From Patescibacteria group bacterium (lineage in GTDB: Bacteria > Patescibacteriota > Minisyncoccia > JAHIHE01 > JAGLIN01): a DNA stretch of 39,502 nucleotides. Positions 157 to 35,390 of the stretch are shown here, in pieces (within the stretch, counting starts at the first letter, position 1; each line of letters opens with the position of its first letter). The translations under genes were made by a program, and so were the position numbers. The DNA lies in contig JAYEHC010000045.1 in assembly GCA_034659355.1 (NCBI GenBank), positions 1 to 39,502 of the forward strand. Reading direction: 5' to 3'. The notes under the pieces are model-generated. The model ran no database searches. It was not told where the DNA came from and saw only the letters and a program-made list of their open reading frames with translations.

Positions 157-1080
157 ATGAATCCTGTCAACCTCCCAATTAAAATCTCTGAAAAGCAAAT
201 CAAAATCAACGGCTTGAATATAAATTATAAAACAATCGGCGCTGGGAAAATTCCGATTGTTTTGTTGCATGGGTGGGGAGTGTCGGGTGACAAATATCTG
301 GAATTAATAAAAAAATTCACAATTCACAATTCACAATTCACAATACTAATCCCCGATCTTCCCGGTTTTGGCAAGAGCGATGAGCCAAATGAAAATTGGA
401 ACCTAGATGATTATGTTGAATTTGTAGATGAATTTGTAAAAAAGACAAGCAGAAAAGGCGGGTTTGAATTAGTCAAAAATATATTAGAGAAAATACAAAA
501 AGGCTCTACAGGGCTATCGCCACAATGGAGCCAACGAGTAAAGAACCAGCAATTTATTTTAATTGGACATTCGTTCGGTGGGCGGATTGCGATTAAATAC
601 GCGGCGAAATATCCGGAGAAAATTGAAAAGTTAATTTTAACCGGCGCGGCGGGAATTAAACACAAATTGACGATAAAGCAAAAAGCGTTTTTTGTTCTGG
701 CAAAAACAGGAAAAACAATTTTTTCTTTGCCGATAATCAATCATTTTCAAAAACCGGCATATAAAATATTTTCCAAAATAGCGCGAAGTAGAAAAAAGGA
801 TTATTATCAAGCCAGTCCAAGAATGAAGGAAATAATGAAAAATGTCTTGGCGGAAGATTTGACGAATTATTTAGAAAAAATAAAAACCCCAACCTTGCTG
901 GTTTGGGGAAGAGAAGATAAAACTACGCCTTTGACGGATGGGAAAATTATGAATGAGAAAATTGAGAATTCTAAGTTAGTTGTTATTGACAACGCTAATC
1001 ATGGCTTGCCTTATCAGAAACAGGAGGAGTTTGGGGAGATTGTTGCAGAGTTTATAAAAACAAATTCTACCCGGCTTTAG
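157..1080 (+). CDS. alpha/beta-fold serine hydrolase
   Basis: 307-aa ORF with an HGWG oxyanion-hole motif, a GHSFGG nucleophile elbow and a C-terminal NANHG His region. It carries an in-frame heptamer repeat and a hairpin-repeat insert. Confidence 0.8.
   Translation: MNPVNLPIKISEKQIKINGLNINYKTIGAGKIPIVLLHGWGVSGDKYLELIKKFTIHNSQFTILIPDLPGFGKSDEPNENWNLDDYVEFVDEFVKKTSRKGGFELVKNILEKIQKGSTGLSPQWSQRVKNQQFILIGHSFGGRIAIKYAAKYPEKIEKLILTGAAGIKHKLTIKQKAFFVLAKTGKTIFSLPIINHFQKPAYKIFSKIARSRKKDYYQASPRMKEIMKNVLAEDLTNYLEKIKTPTLLVWGREDKTTPLTDGKIMNEKIENSKLVVIDNANHGLPYQKQEEFGEIVAEFIKTNSTRL
314..344 (+). repeat. heptanucleotide tandem repeat (AATTCAC) x4.4 inside a CDS
   Basis: Read directly from the sequence. 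Encodes FTIHNSQFTI of the hydrolase. Confidence 0.9.
502..532. repeat. family F-type hairpin inside the hydrolase gene
   Basis: GGCTCTACAGGGCTATCGCCACAATGGAGCC is near-identical to 1826-1856. The following CAACGA matches the 27383 terminus. Confidence 0.75.
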
Positions 1081-1629: not shown

Positions 1630-3456
1630 ATGAATCTTATCAATACCCAAAACATTATTATAATAATATCAATTCTCGCTCTTATCAAAATCGCTCGCGA
1701 TAGTTTGTTTTATCTGTGGCTGTGGCAAATTAAGGAATATAGAACAGATCGGATGAGGGCTTATTTGAGAGACGAGAATGCTGGTTCCATAGTCCCGTTA
1801 GGGCTGTGGAACCAAAATGCAAAAAGGCTCCACAGGGCTATCGCCACTATGGAGCCAGCAGCAGTTTATTTTATCGCACTGATTTTAATTTTAGTTTTCT
1901 ATTTTAGCCAACGAATTCTTGTCTATCTAACGCTACTATTTTTCACTTTTACTTTCTATCAAATTTTAAAAGAGATAAAAAACAGAATTTTAAAACGACC
2001 GAAATTTACCTTTAGGATATTATTTTCACTTTTTGTGATTGCTGTTTTCTATTCGGTTGTTGCGTTTTCGTGGATTCCTCCCGAATTTACTTCGGGAGGA
2101 ATGACAAAAATAGGCGTAGTAAATATATGGACGATAGAAGTAAAAGCGGTAGAAATAATTTTACTTTTATTATTTTTCTATCTCGTCACTCCAATTTTAA
2201 TTACCGCGATTATTTTATTCACTAATCCGTTTTTCAATTTCCAGAAAAAGAGGATTATTAAAAGGGCGAGTTTAAAAATGAAGGGATTAAAAAAAATAAA
2301 AGTTATCGGAATAACGGGCAGTTACGGCAAGACAAGTACGAAAGAATTTCTGAATACTATTTTAAGCCAGAAATACAAAGTTGTTAAAACCGCGGGGAAT
2401 AATAACACGAATATCGGTGTGGCAAGGACAGTGCTGAATAAAGTGAATGATAATTATGATTATTTCATCTGTGAAATGGGCGCGTATAAAATCGGCGAGA
2501 TTGCCGAGATTTGTAATATCGTAAAACCCGAGATAGGAATCTTAACCGGCATTAACGAACAACACCTTGATTTATTCGGATCAATTGAGAATACGGTTAA
2601 AGCGAAATTTGAGTTGATTGAAGCGTTACCAGAAAATGGGTTGGCGATTATAAATTCAAGTATCAAGCAGAACTTACGCATTTGTCATTCCGACCGAAGT
2701 GAACGAGGTACGAGCGAACGGAGTGGAGGAATCTGTAAACACAAAATACTTGCTTTTGATAAAGATACTTTAAAGTACACATCTTATCTGCTCACAGATC
2801 CCTCGGCTCCTATCGTCGCTCGGGATGACAAAAGTTCTGTTAGAGTTGAGAATATAAAACATTTTTCTTTAGACAATGTAAGCGATATTAAAGTTCGTCA
2901 AGATTATGTAGAATTTATTTACAAAGACCAAAAGTTCAAAGCTGATTTTCTTGGCAGACATTATATAGAAAATTTATTAGCGGCTATTATCACAGCGGAA
3001 AATTTGGGAATGAGCTTGGAAGAGATCTCGGAAGCAATAAAAAAAATAGAACCGTCCAAATTTATGATGAGAAAACTGGACGGTTTAAATAATTCTATTT
3101 TTATTGATGACAGTTATAGCGCCAATCCTGACGGCGTAATTGCCGGATTAAATTATTTAGATGAAGCATATCAAGGCTATAGAAAAATAATTGTTTTTCC
3201 GGGAATTATAGAATTAGGAAATAAATCAGAAGAAGTACATCGTAAATTGTTTGGCGGAATAGACAAGATTTGCGATATTGCATATATAATGAGAATCAAA
3301 AATCAAAAATCAAAAATCAAAAATAACTGTAAGTTTATTTTTGAGGAAAGTTTTGATAAGGTAGTGGAGATGCTAAAAAATAATCTTAATAAAAAAACCG
3401 TTGTTCTTTTTGAAAGTCGTGGGGCGGGAGTGGTGATGGGAAAATTAAAAACATAG
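1630..3456 (+). CDS. murF: MurF-like Mur ligase (UDP-MurNAc-tripeptide--D-Ala-D-Ala ligase) with about 220-aa N-terminal membrane domain
   Basis: Mur ligase P-loop GITGSYGKTSTKE, then CEMGA...GILTGINEQHLD and DDSYSANPDG motifs. The N-terminus is hydrophobic and multi-helix. Three repeat-derived in-frame inserts are present. Confidence 0.85.
   Translation: MNLINTQNIIIIISILALIKIARDSLFYLWLWQIKEYRTDRMRAYLRDENAGSIVPLGLWNQNAKRLHRAIATMEPAAVYFIALILILVFYFSQRILVYLTLLFFTFTFYQILKEIKNRILKRPKFTFRILFSLFVIAVFYSVVAFSWIPPEFTSGGMTKIGVVNIWTIEVKAVEIILLLLFFYLVTPILITAIILFTNPFFNFQKKRIIKRASLKMKGLKKIKVIGITGSYGKTSTKEFLNTILSQKYKVVKTAGNNNTNIGVARTVLNKVNDNYDYFICEMGAYKIGEIAEICNIVKPEIGILTGINEQHLDLFGSIENTVKAKFELIEALPENGLAIINSSIKQNLRICHSDRSERGTSERSGGICKHKILAFDKDTLKYTSYLLTDPSAPIVARDDKSSVRVENIKHFSLDNVSDIKVRQDYVEFIYKDQKFKADFLGRHYIENLLAAIITAENLGMSLEEISEAIKKIEPSKFMMRKLDGLNNSIFIDDSYSANPDGVIAGLNYLDEAYQGYRKIIVFPGIIELGNKSEEVHRKLFGGIDKICDIAYIMRIKNQKSKIKNNCKFIFEESFDKVVEMLKNNLNKKTVVLFESRGAGVVMGKLKT
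1783..1856. repeat. two tandem 31-nt family F-type hairpins inside murF
   Basis: GGTTCCATAGTCCCGTTAGGGCTGTGGAACC followed by GGCTCCACAGGGCTATCGCCACTATGGAGCC, both translated in frame. Confidence 0.75.
2070..2105. repeat. 36-nt solo hairpin unit inside murF
   Basis: GTGGATTCCTCCCGAATTTACTTCGGGAGGAATGAC. Intergenic copies lie at 12837 and 34951. Confidence 0.8.
2684..2829. repeat. family B MITE copy inside the murF reading frame
   Basis: GTCATTCCGACCGAAGTGAACGAGG...GGAGGAATCTGT...CTCGGGATGAC. Translated as ICHSDRSERGTSERSGGICKH...PIVARDDK with no frame disruption. Confidence 0.8.
3294..3324 (+). repeat. heptanucleotide tandem repeat (AATCAAA) x4.4 inside a CDS
   Basis: Read directly from the sequence. 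Encodes IKNQKSKIKN of MurF. Confidence 0.9.
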
Positions 3457-3830: not shown

Positions 3831-4181
3831 ATGATGAAAAATAGTTTTGACGAAATTAAGAGATTAATGAAAATAATCGGAGGGAAAGTTGTTATTGTTG
3901 AAAATGGAAAGCCGACGATGGTTATCATAAATGTTGATGAATATATTGGGTTTGAAAAAAAAGATAATTTGAAAAATAGCGTAGAGAGTGATAGCTTGTC
4001 TGACAAAAAGCTTATTGAGAAAATAAACAAGAATATCAATATTTGGAGAAACAGGCAAGAAGAAAGAAAATTAAAACAGCTTGAAGAAGGCGATTACAAA
4101 AAAACGGAAGAAAGTTTTAAAAACTACAAAGAGAGAAAAAAGGACAACAATAACGAAGAGATTGTAATTGAAAAACTTTAG
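3831..4181 (+). CDS. small protein with Phd/YefM-antitoxin-like N-terminus and Lys/Glu-rich tail
   Basis: The segment GGKVVIVENGKPTMVIINVDEY resembles the YefM/Phd N-terminal fold. No adjacent toxin ORF. Confidence 0.4.
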   Translation: MMKNSFDEIKRLMKIIGGKVVIVENGKPTMVIINVDEYIGFEKKDNLKNSVESDSLSDKKLIEKINKNINIWRNRQEERKLKQLEEGDYKKTEESFKNYKERKKDNNNEEIVIEKL

Positions 4182-6048: not shown

Positions 6049-6393
6049 ATGACTGAAGCAACGAAACAGAAAGAGGAAGAAAACGAATCTCAGCCGAAGA
6101 TTCGAATAAAAATTAAAGCGTATGATCATAAGATCATTGACCAGTCTGCAAAGCAGATTATGGAAACGGCTTTGAGAAGTGGAGCATCTGTGAAAGGTCC
6201 CGTGCCTTTGCCGACTGAAATTAGCAGATACACGGTCAACAGATCAACTTTTGTTCACAAAGACGCGCGAGATCAATATGAAATGCGAGTGCATAAAAGG
6301 CTTATTGATATTATTGATCCAAACCCCAAAATAATTGACGCTTTAACAAATTTGAATTTGCCGGCGGGGGTATTTATAGAGATTAAGATGTAA
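6049..6393 (+). CDS. rpsJ: 30S ribosomal protein S10
   Basis: [15 protein letters not shown]...GPVPLPTE...HKRLIDI matches S10. Confidence 0.97.
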
Positions 6394-6417
6394 AAATTGC
6401 CGTTATGATATTATATT

Positions 6418-6529
6418 GTCATTCTCGTGAAGACGGGAATCCATTGCTACAATTTATTTTATTAAAAATCAAGTGATTAATGGTAAAAATAAAATTGTAA
6501 TAGTGGATTCTTGCCTTCGCAGGAATGAC
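6418..6529. repeat. family A MITE/REPIN-like doublet (about 112 bp)
   Basis: GTCATTCTCGTGAAGACGGGAATCCATTGCTACAAT ... ATTGTAATAGTGGATTCTTGCCTTCGCAGGAATGAC. Near-identical to the copy at 10638. Confidence 0.9.
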
Positions 6530-6748
6530 AAACCAGGTTATTAACAATTTTAAAAATGCTAGTTTAAGTGTTTATTACTGAGTTTCTTGAATGAAGGCGA
6601 ACAAACGTTTGTTTGCCTGCAAGAGAAAAGTTTCAGTAAAAGTGCTAATAAGCATACTGAATTAGCCAATTTATAAATCGGATAAAAACGGTTGTAATTG
6701 GTTGAATTATCTGATTTTTTATTTGTATAGAAATGAAAAATATTAATT

Positions 6749-6906
6749 GTCATTCCGACTGGAATGAAGCGAAGCGGAATGGAATGGAGGAATCTGTGAG
6801 CGAATAAAATGTGTTTCTAAAACTATTTTTAAAAGCAGGCATAATTGTGTTTACAGATTTCTCCATTTCGCTTGTTCGTGCCTCACTTCGCTCCAGTCGA
6901 AATGAC
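6749..6906. repeat. family B MITE (158 bp, GTCATTCCGAC termini)
   Basis: GTCATTCCGACTGGAATGAAGCGAAGCGG...CGCTCCAGTCGAAATGAC long imperfect hairpin between rpsJ and rplC. Confidence 0.85.
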
Positions 6907-6948
6907 AGAAAGTAAAAAGTTTTAACTCTGAAATAATTGTTAATTCAC

Positions 6949-7599
6949 ATGAAATTTATTCTCGGAAAAAAAATAGGAATGAGCCAAATTTTCAAAGACG
7001 ATGAAAATGGCAGAAAAGTTGTCCCGGTAACTTTGATTGAGGCGGGTCCTTGTGTTGTGTCTCAAATAAGAAATGAAGAAAAAGACGGTTATCAAGCGAT
7101 TCAAGTCGCATATTTGGAAAAGAAGAAAATTAATAAACCGCTGGCTGGACATTTGAAAGATTTGGGAAAATTCAGATATTTAAAAGAATTCAGATTAGAT
7201 AAAAATGGCGTAGGGAAAAATGCTGAAGAAAAAGAAAAGACGGAATATAAATTAGGCGACAAAATAGCCGTTTCCATTTTTGAGGCTGGCGATAAAATAA
7301 AAGTATCGGGAGTTTCAAAAGCAAAAGGATTTCAGGGAGTAATGAAAAGACACGGATTTAAATGCGGGCAAGCGTCTCATGGACAAAAACACAGCAACAG
7401 AAAACCGGGATCAATTGGCAGCGCTTTTCCGGAGCATGTCATTAAAGGCAAAAAAATGGCAGGGCGAATGGGCGGAGTTCAAAGCACTCAATTGGGATTG
7501 GAAGTCGTAGGGGTTGACAAAGAGAAAAATTTGTTGATAATAAAGGGAGCCGTGCCGGGAAATAATGGGGTTTTGGTAAATATAGTTGAAAGTTTATAA
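6949..7599 (+). CDS. rplC: 50S ribosomal protein L3
   Basis: MKFILGKKIGMSQIF start, typical of L3. ATG at 6949 is preferred over the TTG at 6937. Confidence 0.95.
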   Translation: MKFILGKKIGMSQIFKDDENGRKVVPVTLIEAGPCVVSQIRNEEKDGYQAIQVAYLEKKKINKPLAGHLKDLGKFRYLKEFRLDKNGVGKNAEEKEKTEYKLGDKIAVSIFEAGDKIKVSGVSKAKGFQGVMKRHGFKCGQASHGQKHSNRKPGSIGSAFPEHVIKGKKMAGRMGGVQSTQLGLEVVGVDKEKNLLIIKGAVPGNNGVLVNIVESL

Positions 7600-7620
7600 A
7601 GTTGAAAGTGAAAAACATTT

Positions 7621-7672
7621 TGGAGTTCAGATTTTAATCTGTAAAATTTACAGGTTGAAACCTGAGTTCTGG
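7621..7672. repeat. family E hairpin repeat (TGGAGTTCAG...)
   Basis: TGGAGTTCAGATTTTAATCTGTAAA/TTTACAGGTTGAAACCTGAG, downstream of rplC. Confidence 0.7.
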
Positions 7673-7898
7673 AAATAAAAATAGATTTGCGTAAAAGCAC
7701 ATTGAAAATATAAGTCTGTTTCTTGATTTTTGGAGATAGCGTTGAGTTTTTAAAATTATTTTAGTTTAAAAATTCCCCGCTGTTTCTAAGAGAGAGTGGA
7801 TAATATTTTACTCTTGATGAAATTAGAAATAGACAAAACAACAGGAAGTAGATAAAACGAGAACTAGAACAATTCTAGTTGGGCTACTGGCGTTAACA

Positions 7899-8456
7899 AT
7901 GCTGGTAGCAATAGCGGCAGTGCCGGCGGCAGCCTATACATACAATCGGCAAGCAGCGGCAGACTACGCGCTTAACAACGCGTACAAAAATGTGCCAGGA
8001 AGCTGGCATTTTAGAGACAATGGTGGTGATTGTACCAACTTTGTATCCCATTCTCTTAAAGCAGGAGGATGGAGGGAAATCGGAGGATGGAGTCATACAA
8101 GCGATGATGTATGGTTTTATGACTACCCGTATAGATATGGGTATAGCCATACATGGACACACGCCGATAAGTTCTATCATTTTATGAGTAGAACTTCAAG
8201 AGCTAATCCTGTTTCAGTAAAAAGAAACAGTTATCTGTTGCAAGTAGGCGATGTTGTCCAGATAGACTACAAGGATAGGTATGGAAATTATGGAAGCTGG
8301 GATCATACGATGATTGTTACCGCTAAAGCGGGCAACAAATTGTTTATGTCTTATCACACGAAAGACACGGGAAATAGAGCTCTTTCAGCTATAAGACAAG
8401 AGAGCCCGAATGCTCGCTTTATTGGCTGGCATATCCATAATAACTACAACTACTAA
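7899..8456 (+). CDS. putative cell-wall amidase (Amidase_6-like domain)
   Basis: The GGDCTNFVSHSLKAGGW motif is typical of the putative amidase domain family. The gene is locally much more GC-rich than its neighbours. A signal-anchor-like sequence is encoded in frame upstream of the ATG. Confidence 0.6.
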   Translation: MLVAIAAVPAAAYTYNRQAAADYALNNAYKNVPGSWHFRDNGGDCTNFVSHSLKAGGWREIGGWSHTSDDVWFYDYPYRYGYSHTWTHADKFYHFMSRTSRANPVSVKRNSYLLQVGDVVQIDYKDRYGNYGSWDHTMIVTAKAGNKLFMSYHTKDTGNRALSAIRQESPNARFIGWHIHNNYNY

Positions 8457-8573
8457 AATTGCTCAAAGACAATTTTAGTAATCCCTGAGCAGAGCAAGCG
8501 ATGACTTAGTGTCGTTTTGCCGTTAGCTTACTTTTCTTTTTTTTAAAATTAGACTTTATTCAATAATATAACA

Positions 8574-9293
8574 ATGAACTTTAATAAAAAATATATAATT
8601 ATTTCAACGGTGGTTTCTATGTTGTTTATAATTATGTTTCATGAAATATATTTCTTATTTGAATTTCTTGTACCTTATTCTAATATAGTAAATGTAGTTT
8701 TTGCTGTAATCCTTTTGTTCATTTTAAAATATTTTTACGACAAAAAGCGTTTAAATACTTTTATAGCAATTTCCATATTGTCAATGATATTTTTCATATT
8801 TTGTTTAGATGATATTCTTCCCTCTTTCATAGAAAAAGTCACTAATAAAACACCTGAGGAAAAAGTTGAAGTTTATGTGCGAGCGGTTGCCGAAAATGAT
8901 AAAGAGAAAGCGTTGAGTCTTTGGGAAATTCCTGATTCTTACAAACTCAATTTGGAATATCGCAATAAAATAAAAGATCGCGGAAAACAGATAACTGGAA
9001 AAATGATTGAAAAGGGGATAAAATCGGATTTTACCATTACGCATATTGAATGGTGGAGTACTTGTTGTATGCCAAGCGTAACTGAAAATTCTCGTGTAGC
9101 AGGAGAAGCTAAAGTCCATGTTCAGCTTATAGATTCTAATAATATTAAATCCGTTTATATTTTTGATGTTATTGTTCCAGGAGGTTATGAAGGAGGATTG
9201 ACAGAACATTCAATTCGGCATTGGGTCATATCTGATATTTACCCCGAAAACGAAGAATCGTTGTTTTGGACGAGGAAAAACGAAAATTTTTAA
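8574..9293 (+). CDS. hypothetical membrane protein
   Basis: 239-aa ORF with three N-terminal hydrophobic helices and a soluble C-terminal domain. No motif recognised. Confidence 0.5.
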   Translation: MNFNKKYIIISTVVSMLFIIMFHEIYFLFEFLVPYSNIVNVVFAVILLFILKYFYDKKRLNTFIAISILSMIFFIFCLDDILPSFIEKVTNKTPEEKVEVYVRAVAENDKEKALSLWEIPDSYKLNLEYRNKIKDRGKQITGKMIEKGIKSDFTITHIEWWSTCCMPSVTENSRVAGEAKVHVQLIDSNNIKSVYIFDVIVPGGYEGGLTEHSIRHWVISDIYPENEESLFWTRKNENF

Positions 9294-9405
9294 TTTAACA
9301 TCATGCTCTTCTGCGGGAATGGGTTTGCAACCCATTCCAAATATTTTGAAAATAAATAAAACTTGCTGGAAATAAAAATTGTGAAAATTTATATCTAAAT
9401 AGACT

Positions 9406-10041
9406 ATGCTAAAAACTAAACTATACAATCAAGAGGGGAAAGAAACGGGCGAGGTGGAATTGTCGGAGAGTGTTTTTGGCGTGGAATTGGTTGATGATTT
9501 GGTGCATCAGGCGGTGGTGGCGCAGATGGCGAACGCGAGGCAGGTTTTGGCGGATACGAAAGACAAAGGCGAAGTGAGGGGCGGAGGAAAAAAGCCTTGG
9601 AAGCAGAAAGGAACCGGGAGAGCGAGGCACGGATCAAGCAGATCTCCTATTTGGAAAGGCGGGGGAGTAACATTTGGACCGACAAGCAACCGAAATTTTA
9701 GCAAGATGATTAATAAAAAAATGAAGACAAAAGCGCTTCTTATGGTTTTATCGGGAAAGCTGAGAGATAATGAAATAGTAGTTGTGGAAAATATAAAATT
9801 GGAAAAAGCCTCTACAAAAAAAATGAAAGATATTTTAGGAAAATTGCCATTAAGCGGAAAAGTTTTAATTTCAATGAATAAAAAAGACGACAGCGTTTTC
9901 AATTCAGTCAAGAACATTCAAAATATCTCAATGCTTGCCAGTGATTCTTTGAATGTTGTTGACTTGTTGAAAAACAAGATGTTGGTTATTGACAAAAAAG
10001 GAGTTGAGAGGGTTGGAGAGATTTATAAATTGTGTCTTTAG
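9406..10041 (+). CDS. rplD: 50S ribosomal protein L4
   Basis: GGGKKPWKQKGTGRARHGSSRSPIWKGGGVTFGP matches L4. Confidence 0.97.
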   Translation: MLKTKLYNQEGKETGEVELSESVFGVELVDDLVHQAVVAQMANARQVLADTKDKGEVRGGGKKPWKQKGTGRARHGSSRSPIWKGGGVTFGPTSNRNFSKMINKKMKTKALLMVLSGKLRDNEIVVVENIKLEKASTKKMKDILGKLPLSGKVLISMNKKDDSVFNSVKNIQNISMLASDSLNVVDLLKNKMLVIDKKGVERVGEIYKLCL

Positions 10042-10133: not shown

Positions 10134-10631
10134 ATGAGTATTTTAGATAAAATTAGAAAAAAACCGAAAGATAAAGAGAAGGAAGACAAGAGTAAGGCTG
10201 TAGATAAAAATGAAGTAAAGAAACAGGAATTAAAGAAAAAAGTTGACAAAAAAACAGAAAAGAAAGAAGATAAAAAACAAGACAGTAAGAAAAAAGATAA
10301 GACAGTTTCAAAAGTGAAGAAAGTAGCGAAGGAAAAAATACCGATTCATCATTTTGAAATAATCAGAAAACCGCATATTTCAGAAAAGGCGTTTAATCTT
10401 GAAAGTGAAGGAAAATATGTTTTTGTGGTTTCACCGTCCGCGAATAAAGTGGAAATAAAAAAGGCGATTCAGAATTTATACGGAGTTGTGGTAAAAAGCG
10501 TAAATATCGTGAAGGTCCCATCAAAGCCAAAAAGATTTAGAGGTGTTCCCGGAACTAAAAGCGGATATAAAAAAGCAGTGGTTACTTTAGCGAAAGGGAG
10601 TAAGATTGATGTGATGAAAGAGGCGAAATAA
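10134..10631 (+). CDS. rplW: 50S ribosomal protein L23 with Lys-rich N-terminal extension
   Basis: L23 core: IIRKPHISEKAF...KVEIKKAIQNLYGVVVKSVNIV. ATG 10134 was chosen because the upstream part of the ORF lies in a repeat end. Confidence 0.9.
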   Translation: MSILDKIRKKPKDKEKEDKSKAVDKNEVKKQELKKKVDKKTEKKEDKKQDSKKKDKTVSKVKKVAKEKIPIHHFEIIRKPHISEKAFNLESEGKYVFVVSPSANKVEIKKAIQNLYGVVVKSVNIVKVPSKPKRFRGVPGTKSGYKKAVVTLAKGSKIDVMKEAK

Positions 10632-10637
10632 ATTATT

Positions 10638-10748
10638 GTCATTCCCGTGAAGACGAGAATCCATTGCTACAATTTATTTTATGAAAAGTCAAGTAATGAA
10701 TGGTAAAAATAAATTGTAATAGTGGATTCCTGCCTACGCAGGAATGAC
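10638..10748. repeat. family A MITE/REPIN-like doublet
   Basis: Roughly 90 percent identical by eye to 6418-6529. Lies between rplW and rplB. Confidence 0.9.
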
Positions 10749-10811
10749 AAAGAATAGTTTTAGAGTCATTGGAAAAAATATTTTAATTTTCAAATTTAGC
10801 AATTTAATTAT

Positions 10812-11660
10812 ATGCCAGTAAAGAAATACAAACCAACATCGCCGGGAAGAAGAGGAATGAGTGTAACTGATTTCTCGGGTCTTGATAGGAAAAAACCGGA
10901 AAAGAAATTACTGAAAGCGAAGACGAGCAAAATGGGAAGAGGGAGCGCTGGGAAAATTACAACAAGACATCGAGGTGGCGGAGTAAAAAGAAAATACAGA
11001 GTGATTGATTTTAAAATGAACAAGATTGATATTCCCGCGAAAGTTCAAGCGATTGAATATGATCCGAACAGAACGGCTTTTATTGCTCTTGTCGCTTACG
11101 CTGATGGAGAGAAAAGGTATATCATCGCGCAGGAAGGTTTGAAAAAAGGCGATCAAATTGTTGTTTCTGAGAAGGCTCCGATTAAAATTGGAAACAGACT
11201 GCCACTCAAGAAAATTCCAATAGGAACAAGTATTTGCAATCTTGAAATGATTCCGGGAAAAGGCGGACAGATGGCGAGATCTGCCGGTTCCTCAGTAAAA
11301 TTAATGGCAATAGAAAGCGGATTTGCGCATATTGGCTTGCCGTCCGGAAATGTTAGAATAATTATGGAAGATTCTTACGCGACAATAGGACAGATTAGCA
11401 ATATGGATCACAATAAAGTTGTGATTGGCAAGGCAGGAAGATCAAGATGGATGGGAAGACGACCGCAAGTTAGAGGAAGCGCGATGAATCCCGTGGATCA
11501 TCCGCATGGAGGCGGAGAAGGAAGACAGCCAATTGGATTGAAGCATCCGAAAACGCCGTGGGGCAAGCCAGCTCTGGGAGTAAAGACAAGAAAGAAAAAT
11601 AAACGGTTGAATATATATAAGAGGAGAAGAGAGGAGACAACAGTAGAGGTAAAAGAATAG
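10812..11660 (+). CDS. rplB: 50S ribosomal protein L2
   Basis: PTSPGRR..., [23 protein letters not shown] matches L2. Confidence 0.98.
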
Positions 11661-11691
11661 ATTTTTTAAAGTTATAAAATATACTAAAATT

Positions 11692-11892
11692 GTCATTCTG
11701 AACTTGGTTTAGAATCTACTTTCTTTTATATCTGACTAAATCTACAAATCACTGAACTTTTGAATAAATTGAAAATGCAACAATTATGTTAATAAAAGGA
11801 TGATTGAGTTTGTTCTGTAAATGAAAGTCTAGTGTAAATAGGATAAGTCAAAATCTAAGATACGAAAGATTCTGAAACAAGTTCAGAATGAC
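11692..11892. repeat. family C MITE (about 200 bp, GTCATTCTGAAC...GTTCAGAATGAC)
   Basis: The termini match 24702 and 34726. The interior is homologous in inverted orientation. Lies between rplB and rpsS. Confidence 0.88.
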
Positions 11893-11921
11893 AGTTGATA
11901 GCTTAAATATAAATAACCATT

Positions 11922-12212
11922 ATGTCAAGATCGCTAAAAAAAGGTCCTTATGTGGACGAAAAACTTCTTAAAAAAGTCAAAAATTTGAAAGTCGGTGATA
12001 AAACCGTAATTAAAACTTGGGCAAGAAATTCTACAATATCACCGGAAATGGTTGGGTTTGCTTTTGGAGTGCATAATGGAAAGACGCATATTGAAGTTTC
12101 TATTTCTGAAGATATGGTCGGACATAAACTTGGCGAGTTTTCTCCAACAAAAAAGTTTATCAGACACGGAGGTAAAATGCAGAAGGATATAGAGAATAAA
12201 GCGGGGAAGTAG
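11922..12212 (+). CDS. rpsS: 30S ribosomal protein S19
   Basis: [12 protein letters not shown]...VHNGK...[10 protein letters not shown] matches S19. Confidence 0.97.
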
Positions 12213-12273
12213 TATAAACATATTGAAATTCATAATTACTGAAAAATAATATTATATATTTAAATGAATAACT

Positions 12274-12819
12274 ATGGAAGTTAAAGCGCATCTGAATCGT
12301 TTGAGAATATCGCCAAGAAAAGTAAGATTGGTCGCTGGTTTAGTGAGGAAGATGGATGTTGATGAAGCGAGAAAACAACTTGAATTTTTAAATAAAAAGC
12401 CGACAGATTTGTTATTAAAATTAATAAATTCAGCGGTTGCCAATGCAAGGAACAATTTTGATTTAGATGGAGATAATTTATATATTTCAGAGATACTTAT
12501 TAATGAAGGTCAGACGATGAAAAGATGGAGACCGAGAGCGATGGGAAGAGCTGCGAGAATAAATAAAAGAACATGTTGCGTGACGGTTGTTTTAGATGAA
12601 ATGATAAAGAAAGCGGATAAAGCGAAAAATGAGAAAACAGAAAAGGTGGAAACTTCAGAAAATAAAAACGAAAAAGTTGACGATATTAAAATGACAGGTA
12701 ATACTGAGGATACTGAAGCAGAAAAAACTTTAGAAAAAGGTGAGGTAAAGGATAAAGTAAAAGAAAATAATAAAGAAGTTAAAAAGATGGAAGATAAGAA
12801 TAACAAAAGTGGTAAATAG
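12274..12819 (+). CDS. rplV: 50S ribosomal protein L22 with Lys/Glu-rich C-terminal extension
   Basis: ISPRKVRLVAGLVR...MKRWRPRAMGRAARINKRT matches L22. Confidence 0.95.
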   Translation: MEVKAHLNRLRISPRKVRLVAGLVRKMDVDEARKQLEFLNKKPTDLLLKLINSAVANARNNFDLDGDNLYISEILINEGQTMKRWRPRAMGRAARINKRTCCVTVVLDEMIKKADKAKNEKTEKVETSENKNEKVDDIKMTGNTEDTEAEKTLEKGEVKDKVKENNKEVKKMEDKNNKSGK

Positions 12820-12836: not shown

Positions 12837-12872
12837 GTGAATTCCTCCCGAATTTACTTTGGGGGGAATGAC
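12837..12872. repeat. 36-nt solo hairpin unit
   Basis: GTGAATTCCTCCCGAATTTACTTTGGGGGGAATGAC downstream of rplV. Confidence 0.8.
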
Positions 12873-12911
12873 AAATTGCAGTTGTGTGTAAATAAAATGT
12901 AAAATAATAAA

Positions 12912-13642: not shown

Positions 13643-14050
13643 ATGTTGATGCCCAAAAAGGTAAAACACAGGAAGATGATGAAAGGGAGAATGCGCGGAA
13701 AAGCGCAGAGAGGAAATGTTATCTCTTTTGGCTCTTTTGCTATGAAATCGTTGGAAACATCATGGGTGACAAGTCGTCAAATTGAAGCGGCAAGGCGGGC
13801 AATGACCAGATATGTGCAGAGAGGCGGGAAGATTTGGATTAGGATATTTCCAGACAAACCGATTACCAAGAAACCAGCCGAAGTTCCGATGGGAAGCGGA
13901 AAGGGAAGTCTAGATCATTTTTCAGCGGTGGTAAAACCAGGCAGAATAATTTTTGAGATGGACGGGATAGAAAAAGATATGGCGAAAGAAGCGATGCGAA
14001 GAGCCAGCCATAAACTTCCAGTAAAAGTAAAGTTTATTGTTAAAGAATAA
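13643..14050 (+). CDS. rplP: 50S ribosomal protein L16
   Basis: [11 protein letters not shown]...[13 protein letters not shown]...PMGSGKG matches L16. Confidence 0.97.
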
Positions 14051-14053
14051 TTA

Positions 14054-14128
14054 AAATCATATAAACATTTAAACTTGTGAATATAAGATATGATTATATG
14101 TTTAAATGCTTATATGCTTAAATGATTT
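14054..14128. repeat. AT-rich intergenic palindrome sharing the CATATAAACATTTAAAC module
   Basis: The same 17-mer recurs at about 17470. Its inverted partner GATTATATGTTTAAATGC is present. Confidence 0.6.
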
Positions 14129-14131
14129 ATT

Positions 14132-14332
14132 ATGAAAGCAAAAGAAATTAGACAACAATCCGATAAGCAGTTGCAGAATTTAATAAGAGAAAATAAAGAG
14201 AAACTGAAAAAGTTAAGATTTTCGCTTTCTAACAGGCAATTGAAAGATTATAGCGCGATAAATCAAACAAAGAAAATTATTGCCAGAGCAAAAACGATTT
14301 TAAAAGAAAGGATTTTGAAAGCAGATAACTAA
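14132..14332 (+). CDS. rpmC: 50S ribosomal protein L29
   Basis: 66-aa ORF in the conserved position between L16 and S17. KAKEIRQQSDKQL...LRF is L29-like. Confidence 0.9.
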   Translation: MKAKEIRQQSDKQLQNLIRENKEKLKKLRFSLSNRQLKDYSAINQTKKIIARAKTILKERILKADN

Positions 14333-14352
14333 TTTGAAAAGTAATTATATAT

Positions 14353-14622
14353 ATGAATAAAGAAAATAATAAAGAAACTAAAAGCGTGAAGAAAGGCAAA
14401 GTCGGGATTGTTGTGAGTGATAAAATGGATAAAACGGTTGTAGTGAAAATTGATCGGTTGAAAATGCACGCTAAATATAAGAAAAAATATAAAGTAAGCA
14501 AGAAATACAAAGCGCATGACGCGGGGAATGAATTTAAGATTGGAGATAAAGTTGAGATTATGGAAGTTAAGCCGATGAGCAAGGAGAAGAAGTGGGTGGC
14601 GAGGAGAGTTGAAAGTTTATAA
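14353..14622 (+). CDS. rpsQ: 30S ribosomal protein S17
   Basis: GIVVSDKMDKTVVVKIDR...HKKY...HD..N....GD.V.I.E..P.SK matches S17. Confidence 0.95.
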   Translation: MNKENNKETKSVKKGKVGIVVSDKMDKTVVVKIDRLKMHAKYKKKYKVSKKYKAHDAGNEFKIGDKVEIMEVKPMSKEKKWVARRVESL

Positions 14623-14672
14623 AAGAGAAGCAGAGAGTTTATAAAGTTGTAAAGTTGTAAAGAATGCTCTCT

Positions 14673-15113
14673 GTCATTCCCGCGTAGGCGGGAATCCATT
14701 GATACATTAAACTACATTTAAAAAAACAAAAGCAATAATTTTTTATGAAGCAATGTTATCTTTATATTTTAGCAAGTATAAAAAATGGCACTTTATATAT
14801 AGGAGTAACAAATAATTTACTAAGAAGAGTGCTTGAGCATAAAGATGATCTTGTTGACGGATTCACAAAAAAATACAAAGTTCATAAACTTGTTTGTTAT
14901 GAAGAAATTGATGATATTAAAGTTGCTATCCAAAGAGAAAAGCAAATTAAAAAATGGGAAAGGCAATGGAAGATAAATTTGATTGAAAAGAACAATCCCG
15001 AATGGAAAGATTTATATTACGATTTGCTTGACCAAAGTTAAATTTAGCAAAAGATTAGTGAAAATAATATAGTTGAGTGGTAATAATGGATTCCTGCCTA
15101 CGCGGGAATGACA
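14673..15113. mobile_element. 441-bp element with hairpin terminal inverted repeats carrying the GIY-YIG gene
   Basis: The left end is GTCATTCCCGCGTAGGCGGGAATCCATT. The reverse complement of the right end differs at 1 of 28 nt. The termini are the same as the family A MITEs. The subterminal AAAAGATTAG is shared with the MITE at 24317. Confidence 0.75.
14745..15041 (+). CDS. GIY-YIG nuclease family protein (short UPF0213/COG2827 type)
   Basis: YLYILAS..NGTLYIGVTNNLLRRVLEHK plus a downstream REKQIKKW motif. The 98 aa cover a catalytic domain only. Confidence 0.85.
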   Translation: MKQCYLYILASIKNGTLYIGVTNNLLRRVLEHKDDLVDGFTKKYKVHKLVCYEEIDDIKVAIQREKQIKKWERQWKINLIEKNNPEWKDLYYDLLDQS

Positions 15114-23643: not shown

Positions 23644-24300
23644 ATGAAAAATATCAATATAATAATTATGGGACCGCAAGGTTCCGGGAAAGGGACGCAG
23701 GCGAGGATGTTGACGGAGAAATTTAATTTGCAGATTTTTGAAACGGGGAATATTTTGAGAAATTTAGCTAAGCAAGACACGGAAATTGGCAGAAAGATAA
23801 ACGAAATTATAAATATCAAAGGAGACATTGTTCCTTGGGATTTTATGAAAAAAGAAATACTGGGGCAGAAATTAGACGAGCTTGATAAAAATAAAGGAAT
23901 AATATTTGACGGTACTCCGCGGATAATGGAAGAAGCAGAATTTTGGGATGAAAAATTAAAAGAAACCGGAAGAAAAATTGATTATGCTTTTTATGTTGAT
24001 ATTTCAAAAGAGGAATCAATCAAGCGAATTTCCAGCAGAAAATTATGCAGAGAAAATGGACATCCCTTAATTGTCGGAAAAGATATTACTGAAGAAGATG
24101 AAAAGTGTCCGATTTGCGGAAGTGAAGTTTATAGAAGAGAAGATGATGTTCCGGAAAAAGTTTTAAATCGTTTGGAATGGAGCGAGAAATTATTAAGTCC
24201 CGTCATTGAATATTATGAAAATAAAAATATGTTAGTAAAAATAAATGGCGAACAAAGCGTAGAAGAAGTTTTTGGGGAGATTATGGGTTATGTGAAATAG
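23644..24300 (+). CDS. adk: adenylate kinase (zinc-lid type)
   Basis: IIIMGPQGSGKGTQA P-loop and a lid with C..NGH...CPICG. Confidence 0.95.
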   Translation: MKNINIIIMGPQGSGKGTQARMLTEKFNLQIFETGNILRNLAKQDTEIGRKINEIINIKGDIVPWDFMKKEILGQKLDELDKNKGIIFDGTPRIMEEAEFWDEKLKETGRKIDYAFYVDISKEESIKRISSRKLCRENGHPLIVGKDITEEDEKCPICGSEVYRREDDVPEKVLNRLEWSEKLLSPVIEYYENKNMLVKINGEQSVEEVFGEIMGYVK

Positions 24301-24316
24301 AATGCATAGACATATT

Positions 24317-24428
24317 GTCATTCCCGCGTAGGCGGGAATCCAATAAGTCAGAAAAATGTTATTCAAAAGATTAGCTTGTATAGAAATAGTAAATCGTAGT
24401 AGTGGATTCCCGCCTCCGCAGGAATGAC
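24317..24428. repeat. family A MITE/REPIN-like doublet (112 bp)
   Basis: The left end is identical to the left end of the GIY-YIG element over GTCATTCCCGCGTAGGCGGGAATCCA. The right end is GTGGATTCCCGCCTCCGCAGGAATGAC. Confidence 0.9.
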
Positions 24429-24606
24429 AGTAAAAAATATATGAATCCTCCGCGGGAACTGATTTGTAACCAGTTTCCAATATTTCTCAAGCAAATAAAA
24501 CTTGTAAGTCTTAAAAACAAAGGAAACGGGTTACAAACCCGTTCCCGCATTGCAAAGAAGAAACAAATGGTTCAAGTCAGAGACATTGAACCAACGATAG
24601 GAGTTT

Positions 24607-24691
24607 AGCTTGTTTTAACTAATCCTGCCCGGAAATCCCCCTAGCCCCCTTTTACAAAGGGGGAACAATTGGAGAAAATCAGCAGAGCTTA
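24607..24691. repeat. family D MITE, right half only
   Basis: AGCTTGTTTTAACTAATCCTGCCCGG...AAAATCAGCAGAGCTTA aligns with 25935-26021. Confidence 0.8.
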
Positions 24692-24701
24692 AATAAAATT
24701 T

Positions 24702-24950
24702 GTCATTCTGATCCGCCAGCTGGCGGATTCAGAATCTTCGTTATATTAGGTTTTAACTTATACTATTTTCATCATACTTTCGTCTACGACGCAAACACAA
24801 TTATCTTTCTATAATAATACAATTATTGCATTTTCAGCTTATTCAAAGGTTTAGTGATTTATAGGTTCGGTTAAATGTAAAAGAGAGTAGATTCTGAAAC
24901 AAGTTCAGAATGACAGGTTAGTTCAGAATAACAGGTTAGTTCAGAATGAC
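24702..24950. repeat. family C MITE with an altered left hairpin and a tandemly triplicated right end
   Basis: The left hairpin is GTCATTCTGATCCGCCAGCTGGCGGATTCAGAATC. The right end is GTTCAGAATGACAGGTTA in 2.7 copies (24903-24950). Confidence 0.85.
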
Positions 24951-25052
24951 AAGCTTTTTAGATAGATTAGAGTAGGAAGTTCTAAGATTTTGGGATGACA
25001 ATAGTGACAAGAAACAATAGTGTTTTTAATTTAAAGTTCTAACTACAAAACA

Positions 25053-25823
25053 ATGAGAAAAAAAATAAATCTAAAATCCAAATCAGAAATAAAGACGATG
25101 AGAGAAAGCGGAAAGATTCTCGCGCATATCTTAGAACTGCTGGCTTCAAAAGTTGAGCCGGGAATTTCAGGAGACGAGCTGGAGAAAATAGCGGAAAAAG
25201 AAGTTAAAAAATATGAAGTAATCCCGTCCTTTAAAAATTATGTAATAAGCAGGGATATAACGCCGTTTCCGTCTATAATTTGTCTTTCCATAAACGATGA
25301 AATTGTTCATGGTTTTCCGTTTGGAAAAATAATAAAAGAAGGAGATATTGTTAGCATTGACTCTGGCGTAAAATATGAAGGGTTCCATTCCGATAGCGCT
25401 ATTACGGTGGGAGCGGGAAAAATAAGCGAGAAAGCGCAGAAACTTCTTGAGGTAACAAAAGAATCTTTATTAAAAGGAATAGGAGAAGTAAAAGCGGGAA
25501 ACAGAATCGGCGATATTGGATTTGCTGTTCAAGAATATGCGGAGAAAAATGGATTTTCCGTTGTCAGGGATTTAGTTGGTCACGGAGTGGGCAGAGCGGT
25601 TCACGAATCTCCTGATATTCCAAATTATGGAAATAAAAACAGCGGGTTGAAATTATGTCAAGGAATGACTTTTGCGATAGAGCCGATGGTAAACGAAGGA
25701 GTGTATGATATTAAATGTTGCGATGACAATTGGACAATCAAAACCGCTGACGGAAAATTATCAGCGCACTTTGAACACACAGTGGCGGTAACAGAAAATG
25801 GGTGCGAGATTTTAACAAGGTAA
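25053..25823 (+). CDS. map: type I methionine aminopeptidase
   Basis: Metal-ligand motifs: D..V.G.HSDSA, HGVGRAVHE, FAIEPM, HFEHTV. Confidence 0.96.
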   Translation: MRKKINLKSKSEIKTMRESGKILAHILELLASKVEPGISGDELEKIAEKEVKKYEVIPSFKNYVISRDITPFPSIICLSINDEIVHGFPFGKIIKEGDIVSIDSGVKYEGFHSDSAITVGAGKISEKAQKLLEVTKESLLKGIGEVKAGNRIGDIGFAVQEYAEKNGFSVVRDLVGHGVGRAVHESPDIPNYGNKNSGLKLCQGMTFAIEPMVNEGVYDIKCCDDNWTIKTADGKLSAHFEHTVAVTENGCEILTR

Positions 25824-33997: not shown

Positions 33998-34705
33998 ATG
34001 AAATTAATTTTTGACATTGAAACAATCGGGGAAGATTTTGACGCTCTTGATGAAATAACACAAGATGTTTTAACGCATTGGATTAGAAAAGATTCGTCAA
34101 ATGAAAAAGAATATCAAGCGGCGCTGGAAGATTTGAAAGACGGGTTGGGATTTTCTCCTTTGACGGGCGAGATAGTCGCGATTGGAGTTTTGGATGGCGA
34201 TGAAAACAAAGGAGCTGTTTATTTTCAATCACCGGACAAAGAAGAAAAAGAACTTGAGAAAGAGGGGATTAAATTCAAAGCGATGACAGAAAAAGAAATG
34301 CTGGAAAGTTTTTGGAAGATTGCCGAGAAGTATCAGGATTTTGTCAGTTTCAACGGTCGCGCGTTTGATGTTCCTTTTATGATAATCAGATCGGCTATTC
34401 ACGGAATCAAGCCAAGCAAAAATTTAATGTCAAACAGATATTTGAACAGCCAGATATTTAATGCCAAGCATATTGACTTGCTTGATCAGTTGACTTTTTA
34501 CGGCGCGGTCTACAGAAGAAAAGGCGGGCTGCATCTTTGGTGTCGGGCGTTCGGGATAAAAAGTCCGAAAGCGGATGGAGTTACCGGAGATGATGTCGGG
34601 AAATTATTTAAAGAGAAAAAGTTTTTTGATATTGCCAAATATAATGTCGGGGATTTGCGGGCAACAAAGGAGCTTTATAAATATTGGGAGAAGTATGTGA
34701 GATAG
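33998..34705 (+). CDS. RNase H-fold 3'-5' exonuclease (PolB-exonuclease-like, COG3298 type)
   Basis: ExoI FDIETIG, ExoII SFNGRAFDVPF and ExoIII YNVGDLRAT motifs. Confidence 0.65.
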   Translation: MKLIFDIETIGEDFDALDEITQDVLTHWIRKDSSNEKEYQAALEDLKDGLGFSPLTGEIVAIGVLDGDENKGAVYFQSPDKEEKELEKEGIKFKAMTEKEMLESFWKIAEKYQDFVSFNGRAFDVPFMIIRSAIHGIKPSKNLMSNRYLNSQIFNAKHIDLLDQLTFYGAVYRRKGGLHLWCRAFGIKSPKADGVTGDDVGKLFKEKKFFDIAKYNVGDLRATKELYKYWEKYVR

Positions 34706-34725
34706 ATTGTAATTTGTCATTCTGA

Positions 34726-35052
34726 ACTTGTTTCAGAATCTTCGTTATTTTAGGTTTTGACTTATATTATTTACATCATGCTTTTGCCTACGACACAAAT
34801 ACAATTATCTTTCTGTTTAACACAATCACTGCATTCCCAGTTTATTCAAATACCCAGTGATTTGTAGGTTTAATTAAGTATAGTGGTAATACCTTAAAAT
34901 TACTTTTTTTATTTCAATGTCTGATGCAGGATTTATCATTTATTGTAGCAGTGGATTCCTCCCGAAAGTTCTCGGGAGGAATGACAAATAGCTATTTTTA
35001 AAATAATACCACTATATAAAAAAAGTAGATTCCAAACCAAGTTCAGAATGAC
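34726..35052. repeat. family C MITE with a nested 35-nt hairpin unit
   Basis: The left 130 bp aligns with 24730-24860. The nested unit GTGGATTCCTCCCGAAAGTTCTCGGGAGGAATGAC lies at 34951-34985. Confidence 0.85.
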
Positions 35053-35075
35053 ATTAGATTTTTAACAATAAAAAT

Positions 35076-35390
35076 ATGATCATCACAACAACAGATGAAG
35101 TTCCAGGCAAGAATATTATCCGGACACTTGGACTTGTCAAAGGAAACACTGCCAGAGCGAGAAATGTCGGCAGAGATATTTTTGCTTTTGCTAAAAATAT
35201 TGTCGGAGGCGAAGTTATGGAGTATACAAAACTTATTGCGGAATCAAGAGAACAAGCAATAGACAGAATGAAAAAAGATGCGGAAAAAATGGGCGCGAAC
35301 GCGATTGTTTGTCTCAGGTTTTCCAGTACAACTATCAGCGGTGGGATTTCAGAAGTTTTGGTATACGGAACAGCGGTAAAAATTGAATAA
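35076..35390 (+). CDS. ybjQ: YbjQ/UPF0145 family protein
   Basis: 104 aa: MIITTTDEVPGK.I...GLV.G......N.GRD.......I.GGE...Y......R..A..RM...A...GANAIV..R. Confidence 0.88.
   Translation: MIITTTDEVPGKNIIRTLGLVKGNTARARNVGRDIFAFAKNIVGGEVMEYTKLIAESREQAIDRMKKDAEKMGANAIVCLRFSSTTISGGISEVLVYGTAVKIE

Follow-up and report, generated by a model that had tools for sequence, protein, structure and literature searches.

Can mobile repeats settle inside a gene of an essential pathway and be read as part of the enzyme that it encodes? This question is raised by a 39,502-nucleotide (nt) contig of a Patescibacteria group bacterium (GenBank assembly GCA_034659355.1, contig JAYEHC010000045.1), which is called the window here. 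At positions 1630-3456 of the forward strand it holds an open reading frame (ORF) for a MurF-type Mur ligase of the Patescibacteria kind, which is 608 amino acids (aa) long and open throughout. An original prediction proposed that three repeat elements are inserted in frame in this ligase and read through. The explanation that we favor, and consider likely, is that the gene encodes a functional membrane-anchored MurF in a heavily repeat-colonized, Paceibacteria-like genome of the Patescibacteria, and that repeats survive in frame in permissive loops, where they would be translated as probably disordered peptides.

The first insert (1783-1856, forward strand) was found at the proposed coordinates as two tandem 31-nt hairpins. 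It is a 74-nt composite in which hairpin A2 (1783-1813) and hairpin A1 (1826-1856) are separated by a 12-nt spacer, AAAATGCAAAAA. Its translation, GSIVPLGLWNQNAKRLHRAIATME, lies within the loop that joins the first two membrane helices, and its RNA has a fold of -42.3 kcal/mol (z = -8.5), which was equaled by none of 200 shuffles. The second insert is a 36-nt, TGTC-tagged hairpin of the type known from repetitive extragenic palindromes (REPs) and Ssn-related motifs (SRMs). It lies on the reverse strand at 2071-2106, one nucleotide from the boundaries first given (2070-2105), and reads in antisense as a TGTCAT head, a 12-bp stem, a 5-nt loop, and an ATCCA tail. The sense strand is translated as WIPPEFTSGGMT, and the fold is again stronger than in all 200 shuffles (z = -5.5). 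Two further members of its subfamily are located on the forward strand of the window. One (12837-12875), in the spacer between rplV and rpsC, is 92% identical without gaps (94% over 35 nt by blastn, E = 2.8e-9). The other (34951-34989) is more diverged, with 64% ungapped identity, or 90% over 39 nt with one gap. Both are intergenic, as had been predicted, and the former is indeed near-identical to the insert, but this description is generous for the latter.

The third insert resembles the miniature inverted-repeat transposable elements known as MITEs. It is 148 nt long (2683-2830, forward strand) and runs from TGTCAT to ATGACA, with the ends TGTCATTCCGAC... and ...CTCGGGATGACA carrying a TGTCAT...ATC head. 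Its translation, CHSDRSERGTSERSGGICKHKILAFDKDTLKYTSYLLTDPSAPIVARDD, follows closely on GLAIIN, a conserved strand of the central domain, and the fold of the element (z = -3.6) was not equaled in 200 shuffles. Compared to the orthologue P0004, it adds 51 aa. A 160-nt sister element (6748-6907, reverse strand) lies inverted relative to the MurF copy in the intergenic spacer between rpsJ and rplC (S10 and L3), with 75% identity over 145 aligned bases. The predicted extents of this pair, about 146 bp at 2684-2829 and an intergenic copy at 6749-6906, were correct to within 1-2 nt. Only one of the six frames of the third insert is open, and it is the frame used by MurF; the sister has stops in all six.

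A fourth repeat-derived segment of the same gene is a perfect heptamer array, AATCAAA in 4.4 units (3294-3324, forward strand). It is in frame and translated as RIKNQKSKIKNN in the hypervariable C-terminal loop of MurF. At this loop, the orthologues carry arrays of other units (GAAACTGG, ATATTGG, TGGAAAC, ACTGGAA) or hairpins of the same family as insert 1 (AKRLHSPNGTMEP). At the site of insert 3, orthologous MurF genes can instead hold another repeat class, translated as VPPLKKGARGI, and MITEs translated as CHPELVSGS...ILKQVQNDK occur at a third site in orthologues.

The enzyme itself was identified by profile and structure comparisons. Pfam places Mur_ligase_M at aa 228-455 (128 bits) and Mur_ligase_C at aa 488-594 (33.7 bits), and the top NCBIfam model is TIGR01143 murF with 222.9 bits, below its cut-off of 288.6. 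The closest PDB entries are MurF structures, both by sequence (1gg4, 3zl8) and by predicted fold (4qf5, 3zl8, 1gg4). The MurF label is thus the best match by sequence and fold, with the reservations that the TIGR01143 score is under the cut-off and that the canonical N-terminal domain is missing. Its place is taken by a helical membrane domain (aa 1 to about 215, positions 1630-2275) whose invariant residues are W30, Q33, K35-R38, D40, and R41. The motif LWQxKEYRxDR of this domain and the GKT P-loop are among 130 invariant columns in a 30-sequence MurF alignment, in which the P-loop GSYGKTST does not vary. The membrane-anchored layout recurs in near full-length tblastn matches from metagenome-assembled genomes labeled as many Patescibacteria groups and orders. 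By these comparisons, the ORF can be assigned to the membrane-anchored form of MurF that is usual in Patescibacteria. A true start at the internal ATG (2278), with inserts 1 and 2 then falling outside of the gene, was considered and rejected, since across many orders the conservation of the N-terminal domain extends to residues 1-10. As a separate observation, this multi-helix domain, with the fuller motif LWLWQIKEYRxDR, is conserved across many Patescibacteria orders in place of the MurF N-terminal domain; we found neither a paper on it in the literature nor a Pfam family that matches it.

The gene order SerRS, hydrolase, MurF, EF-Tu, and S10 is kept in relatives, so the MurF comparisons involve true orthologues. 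Inserts 1 and 3 are missing from the close syntenic orthologues P0004-P0006 in both protein and DNA alignments. Insert 3 is also absent from L001 and is present in L085, L004 (P0002), and L002/L003/L005 (P0003). The site of insert 1 is empty in P0002-P0006 and filled in P0007, P0008, P0010, P0013, P0024, P0043, and P0044, as well as in L085, L087, and L088. Filled sites in independent assemblies (L085, L004, L002/L003/L005), taken together with empty orthologues, indicate that these segments are insertions and neither ancestral MurF sequence nor chimeras of one assembly. The latter point is reinforced by independent assemblies from NCBI, JGI, and ENA, which place the inserts identically. On a tree of the core sequence, inserts 1 and 3 are distributed patchily; they must have been gained more than once at the same loops, lost precisely, or exchanged. 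Mobility shows most clearly in the MurF gene of L004 (P0002; L004 3157-3230), where a 72-nt version of the double hairpin of insert 1, 98.6% identical, sits reversed at a different site. In this orientation it encodes a hydrophobic peptide, GSIVAIALWILFAFWF, at the place occupied by membrane helix 2 in other orthologues, which suggests that a repeat has replaced a transmembrane segment with one of its own encoding.

Insert 2 has a different history. Of the 120 closest homologues, 38 also have a hairpin at its site and in its frame, and this insert is therefore old and neither private nor recent. Ten orthologues with available DNA hold a hairpin at this site and frame, mostly the 26-nt dRS3-type TGGATTCCCGCCTTCGCGGGAATGAC, which is an exact dRS3 match. 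Some orthologues (L085, L087, P0053) lack it. The stem variant in the window is that of the intergenic copies at 12837 and 34951 and not that of the orthologues, which points to replacement or conversion of the resident hairpin by another family member. In the MurF of L004, a second hairpin is nested in the loop of the insert-2 hairpin (+24 nt).

All inserts are read without stops, as predicted, and the same holds among relatives. A set of complete, non-redundant close relatives was assembled from DNA-level searches and three gene-call look-ups, and each frame was re-derived from the DNA, stop to stop. All 26 had a single open frame, of 515-629 aa. Length differences among the in-gene copies of insert 3 in L085, L004, and L002 are 0, 27, and 21 nt. 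By self-BLAST, repeats make up 2159 of the 9052 non-coding bases of the window (24%) versus 290 of its 30,450 coding bases (0.95%), an approximately 25-fold depletion in coding DNA. MurF accounts for 205 of these 290 bases and the hydrolase for 44. Likewise, only three of the 28 TGTCATTC/GAATGACA termini in the window are in coding DNA, all three in MurF. Purifying selection acting on a gene that is translated would be expected to leave such a pattern, and from the conservation of frame we infer that the inserts are translated. Candidate tryptic peptides across the insert junctions, taken from the translation, are LHRAIATMEPAAVYF, ICHSDR, and DDKSSVR.

The positions of the inserts in the protein are consistent with permissive loops. 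An AlphaFold2 model of MurF has a mean predicted local distance difference test (pLDDT) score of 71.5, with values below 50 at aa 34-78, 155-165, and 347-404, among others. These three segments contain or abut inserts 1, 2, and 3, respectively, and are predicted to lie between secondary-structure elements. The alignment with E. coli MurF stops at LPENGIAIMNAD = LPENGLAIINSS, after IMNAD and directly before insert 3, and resumes about 90 residues further on.

The source of the inserts can be traced in part to a known class of repeats. Family 1 of the CGTC-tagged REPs is defined by a CGTC or TGTC head (a CCTC variant is also accepted), an 8-bp stem that begins with A-T and then T-A, a 4-nt loop, and a CCA tail; stems of 8-9 bp and loops of 4-5 nt are allowed in CGTC-tagged REPs (PMC3733652). 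This family has been equated with dRS3 and with the Rickettsia palindromic element (RPE) RPE-6 of R. conorii, RPE-4 has also been filed as a CGTC-tagged REP, and intragenic copies have been recorded in several species (PMC3733652). The commonest hairpin of the window is TGTCATTCCCGCG(T/G)AGGCGGGAATCCA. All 28 termini read TGTCAT[TC]C or its complement, including insert 2 (in antisense) and both ends of insert 3. The Neisseria dRS3 pattern ATTCCC[N8]GGGAAT occurs four times exactly and eight times with at most one mismatch, compared to 0.09 expected, in intergenic copies. The 28-nt NTS pattern (CGTCATTCCCGCGMAVGCGGGAATCYRG) has four copies at three mismatches (25 of 28 positions) where none is expected, and the strict SRM expression HGTCWYN(0-2)YYVSBRHN(0-5)WNVSBRGN(0-2)RNCYNB has three copies versus 0.04 expected; most window copies, including those in genes, miss the strict expression at loop positions. 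SRMs are the cleavage sites of small GIY-YIG single-stranded DNA nucleases (Ssn), and they typically border the genes of these nucleases (PMC11893778, 2025); the GTC head and the C after the palindrome are critical for cleavage and binding by Ssn (PMC11893778). Insert 2, in antisense, and both ends of insert 3 retain these two features. By these signatures, insert 2 and the ends of insert 3 can be placed in the CGTC/TGTC-tagged REP class (dRS3/NTS/SRM).

A matching nuclease gene is present in the same window. In the interval between rpsQ (S17) and rplN (L14), an insertion-sequence-like unit (14672-15113, forward strand) consists of a TGTC-tagged hairpin (14672-14699), a nuclease gene (14745-15041), and an inverted hairpin (15087-15113). 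The gene was located by tblastn with a GIY-YIG consensus and confirmed by Pfam as a 98-aa, single-domain GIY-YIG protein (62.6 bits, E = 4.4e-17). Each of the inverted hairpins is 46 nt away from the ORF, one upstream and one downstream. The sub-terminal sequences of the unit group with the ends of 114-nt MITEs, in repeat families D1 and D2. The nuclease-between-hairpins layout is also found in loci L009, L098, and L103 of the candidate phyla radiation (CPR) and in IMG/VR contigs, each with its own stem variant. Homologues of the nuclease number more than 7000, the top 120 of which are 67-100% identical, and the few with a taxon name include Proteobacteria and Campylobacterota. From its domain and its setting, the GIY-YIG nuclease is likely to be the Ssn-type partner of the hairpin family from which insert 2 and the ends of the MITE derive. 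No transposase was found among the window ORFs scanned, which were part of the total.

Insert 3 and its sister have the hallmarks of MITEs, namely long inverted arms, an end-to-end fold, small size, and multiple copies, with further copies in P0122 and P0123. The window also has two 114-nt MITE units (6417-6530 and 10637-10749) whose first 80 nt show 93% identity. P0122 is an unrelated 521-aa membrane protein of the Wzy_C (O-antigen-ligase-like) type, and it carries the insert-3 MITE in the same frame (CHSDRS...PIVARDDK) at residues ~270-345. This copy has a nested insertion in its left arm and adjoins short tandem repeats. An exhaustive search of representative proteins for insert 3 gave three matches in a library clustered at 50% identity, which hides close insert-bearing variants, so the search says little about frequency. 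Of the three, P0122 is a genuine in-frame copy, P0121, a protein with FN3 repeats, is a chance match, and the remaining one is a 107-aa ORF that is probably spurious. The insert-3 arm was not found in an IMG/VR scan.

Insert 1 belongs to a second hairpin family, family A, which is unclassified and distinct from the TGTC-tagged one. In approximately 171 kb of related DNA, all 14 strict copies of this hairpin lie in MurF or upstream of it and none is intergenic, a pattern opposite to that of the TGTC-tagged family. Where the ORF context was examined, the upstream copies proved to be in the hydrolase ORF; the loci were sampled around MurF. Copies were taken from the window (1783-1856 and 490-533) and from L004, L006, L008, L085, L087-L089, L094, and L095. 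The hairpin was not detected in the IMG/VR scan. The copy at 490-533 (forward strand) is a 44-nt partial version of insert 1, spacer plus A1 hairpin, with 93% identity, and is in frame in the alpha/beta hydrolase upstream of MurF, where it is translated as KIQKGSTGLSPQWSQ. It is absent from the hydrolase orthologues in L001 and L002 and present in that of L004.

From these observations, a course of events can be proposed. Copies of small palindromic repeats would land in MurF and survive only in permissive loops. An Ssn-type nuclease may spread or maintain the hairpins and MITEs in trans via single-stranded DNA intermediates, purifying selection would remove copies that break the gene and leave those that are in frame and free of stops, and the survivors would be translated as tolerated passenger loop peptides instead of functional modules. 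No consistent direct repeat was seen at the flanks of the 28 termini or of four orthologous copies of insert 3, that is, no target-site duplication of the kind associated with MITEs; one 8-nt direct repeat, AGTGTGTA, occurs in L085 only. The lack of a duplication fits spread through single-stranded DNA without proving it.

The alternative that survives best is exaptation, in which the hairpins have a second function. They could be kept as Ssn targets that limit recombination at murF, as mRNA pacing structures, or as new loop or membrane peptides. We regard this as unlikely, while noting that it accounts for several features. The insert-2 hairpin is held at its site and frame in almost a third of the homologues compared (38 of 120), with GC-rich codons in a genome of 35% GC. 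Among eight orthologous insert-2 hairpins, 100% of cells are paired and there are two compensatory changes, from C-G to U-A. The covariation is weak, as 29 of 500 shuffles reach the observed value and only seven of the sequences are distinct. Both features that are critical for Ssn, the GTC head and the C behind the palindrome, are retained by the in-gene copies, and the reversed element of L004 supplies a hydrophobic segment where others have membrane helix 2. Between genomes that share 82-83% identity in the MurF core and 65-67% at third codon positions, insert 3 shows 98-100% identity in its 57-nt left arm, compared to 56-78% in its middle. This constraint, like that on the insert-2 stem, fits recent insertion, conversion from other genomic copies, or selection on the hairpin equally well, and the peptide encoded by the middle of insert 3 varies freely. 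Moreover, inserts 1 and 3 are missing from many close orthologues, and some, such as L085, L087, and P0053, do without insert 2. If exaptation is nevertheless stated for the TGTC hairpin of murF, this would be a dual-coding element long kept as an Ssn target or mRNA structure, shaping recombination, transformation, or expression while its translation supplies loop or membrane segments. We give this version only a small chance of being correct; a corollary would be that family-A hairpins are a repeat class adapted to coding DNA.

Far less probable is that the inserts are absent from the mature protein through removal from the mRNA, ribosome bypass (as in T4 gene 60 or the mitochondrial 'byp' elements), or protein splicing. 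Each insert is a strong hairpin, and CPR genomes are known for intervening sequences in their rRNA genes, both of which would favor such a process. However, an in-frame and stop-free pattern would be unnecessary if the inserts were spliced out or bypassed, and the in-gene copies are all open in the 26 relatives, with indels in multiples of three. The inserts are also too small for inteins and have no intein features, and no Rfam family is found in the window at gathering thresholds. On the sense strand, no terminator-like site was found at the inserts. That the gene is a decaying or redundant paralogue, or an artefact of assembly across repeats, is equally improbable, since the low TIGR01143 score, the missing canonical N-terminal domain, the tendency of metagenome assemblies to mis-join at repeats, and the single genome window at hand are outweighed by an architecture that is standard across many Patescibacteria orders, the 130 invariant columns including the GKT P-loop, an ORF that is intact in all complete relatives, identical insert positions in NCBI, JGI, and ENA assemblies, and conserved synteny.

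Several points weigh against the survival of repeats as translated passengers in a functional MurF, which remains the explanation that we prefer. Neither a target-site duplication nor a clean empty-site junction is seen, and the flanks of inserts 1 and 3 are rearranged or filled by heptamer arrays. For a simple selfish repeat it would be unusual to have no non-coding copy in approximately 171 kb of related DNA, as is the case for insert 1. The insert-2 copy of the window, with its 12-bp stem and 5-nt loop, fails the strict dRS3 and SRM patterns. The link between the nuclease and mobility is drawn by analogy, as work on Ssn demonstrated cleavage of single-stranded DNA and an effect on transformation, not transposition (PMC11893778). 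Transcription and translation of the inserts are deduced from sequence, and the low pLDDT of the inserts is partly an effect of their absence from most rows of the alignment.

Other repeats surround the gene. Heptamer or octamer arrays of ~4.3-4.6 units (~30-33 nt), near-perfect, form a separate repeat class in the window and its orthologues. They were seen at 314-344 and 3294-3324 of the window and in L001, L004, L085, L087, L091, L093, L095, and L009. An octamer reading of the two window arrays was ruled out by Tandem Repeats Finder, which gave heptamer units. The 'empty' insert-3 site of L001 is filled by a tandem array, and orthologues vary the array unit at the same two MurF loops. The alpha/beta hydrolase ORF (157-1080) contains an in-frame heptamer array, AATTCAC, at 314-344 in addition to its in-frame family-A hairpin, and its C-terminal tail (~1060-1080) runs into a palindrome. 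Its orthologues in L002 and L004 have an extra insert from another repeat family, translated as PPLSGGL...PPDKGGLG. Downstream of MurF, a 116-aa ORF (3831-4181) gives a weak, sub-cut-off match to the Phd/YefM antitoxins (20.5 bits), and relatives carry a 114-aa gene at the equivalent position.

Unusually long spacers packed with MITEs and hairpins lie in and around the ribosomal protein operon, at 6393-6937, 7599-9406, 10631-10812, 11660-12274, 14050-14353, 24300-25053, and 34705-35076. Between rplC and rplD there is an Amidase_6 gene (7899-8456) and a 239-aa ORF of no known family. The ORF for L23 (10066-10631, 187 aa) has a 96-aa N-terminal extension that starts at an ATG inside a MITE terminus (GAATGACA) and holds A-rich tandem repeats at 10232-10300; the true L23 start is probably downstream of the listed one. 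The 26-nt motif TGTCATTCCCGC-N4-GCGGGAATCC also occurs in at least 120 IMG/VR viral contigs (L165-L284) with GC contents from 0.3 to 0.7. CCAG or CCAT follows it in nearly all cases, and a ribosome-binding site and ATG often come just downstream. Among the matches listed, a few contigs have the motif on both sides of a GIY-YIG gene.

Extra loops in conserved CPR proteins are usually ascribed to lineage-specific 'insertions' of unknown origin. The repeats described here provide a concrete source for some of these loops, and annotators should be aware that variation in protein length can be repeat-derived. They also bear on how much foreign peptide a Mur ligase tolerates. With a nuclease gene, hairpins, derived MITEs, and filled and empty sites in a gene of an essential pathway, the locus represents a compact natural test system for the spread of hairpins by Ssn-type nucleases. 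We found no literature on such insertions in CPR or Patescibacteria, in line with the original prediction, which was aware of no such characterization in CPR-type genomes; intragenic CGTC REPs have been published for other phyla, and the Ssn paper does not mention Patescibacteria or CPR (PMC11893778). In-frame palindromic insertions as such are established for RPEs, intragenic GTAG and CGTC REPs, ERIC, and QMITE (PMC10969869, PMC3733652). The repeat class and the nuclease have already been described. What this case adds is that several classes of repeat accumulate in a single conserved enzyme and recur at the same loops, and that the window also encodes the nuclease. Both the protein-coding palindromes of the Rickettsia type and the dRS3/NTS-Ssn pairing of hairpin and nuclease are thereby extended to the Patescibacteria/CPR.

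Among known systems, REP/REPIN elements with their RAYT transposases and MITEs such as ERIC, Correia, the Coxiella QMITE, and the small dispersed repeats of cyanobacteria resemble the window elements in being non-autonomous, mostly intergenic, and arranged as inverted pairs in MITE-like units. Further shared traits are a single-copy gene, for a nuclease or a transposase, with the repeat on both sides, and occasional in-frame copies inside genes. The window family differs in its head, which is TGTC and not GTAG, and in its partner, which is a GIY-YIG nuclease and not an HUH tyrosine transposase. Classical MITEs typically leave a target-site duplication, whereas the elements of the window show none.

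The dRS3/NTS/Ssn systems are closer. The window hairpin TGTC-ATTCCCGC-GNAG-GCGGGAAT-CCA fits CGTC family 1 in its TGTC head, 8-bp stem, 4-nt loop, and CCA tail, and the 98-aa single-domain GIY-YIG gene between inverted hairpin copies recalls the NTS-ssnA-NTS arrangement of Neisseria. In contrast to the intergenic NTS mosaics of Neisseria, the window has an in-gene copy with a longer, 12-bp stem that does not match the strict patterns. Previous descriptions of this class are not from CPR, and the window nuclease is likened to Ssn (cd10448) by its Pfam GIY-YIG domain and its layout.

The parallel with Rickettsia, which the original prediction had drawn, is even closer than claimed, because insert 2 and the MITE ends fall, by class description, in the class that includes R. 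conorii RPE-4 and RPE-6 (PMC3733652). Like RPE-1 to RPE-10 (Ogata et al., via PMC10969869 and PMC3733652), which are palindromes in frame in known, often housekeeping proteins and have empty orthologues, the MurF elements are dispersed palindromes inside an ORF whose frame and downstream domains are intact and which has insert-free orthologues; the hosts share a reduced genome as well. The host is a member of the Patescibacteria and not of the Alphaproteobacteria, and the two sets were compared via class descriptions and not by sequence. Nearly half of the RPEs of R. conorii are inside ORFs, whereas the window copies are mostly intergenic. Finally, in contrast to the RPEs, one gene of the window accumulates several repeat classes, namely a hairpin, a 148-nt MITE, hairpins of a second family, and heptamer arrays, and such repeats recur in the same loops of its orthologues.

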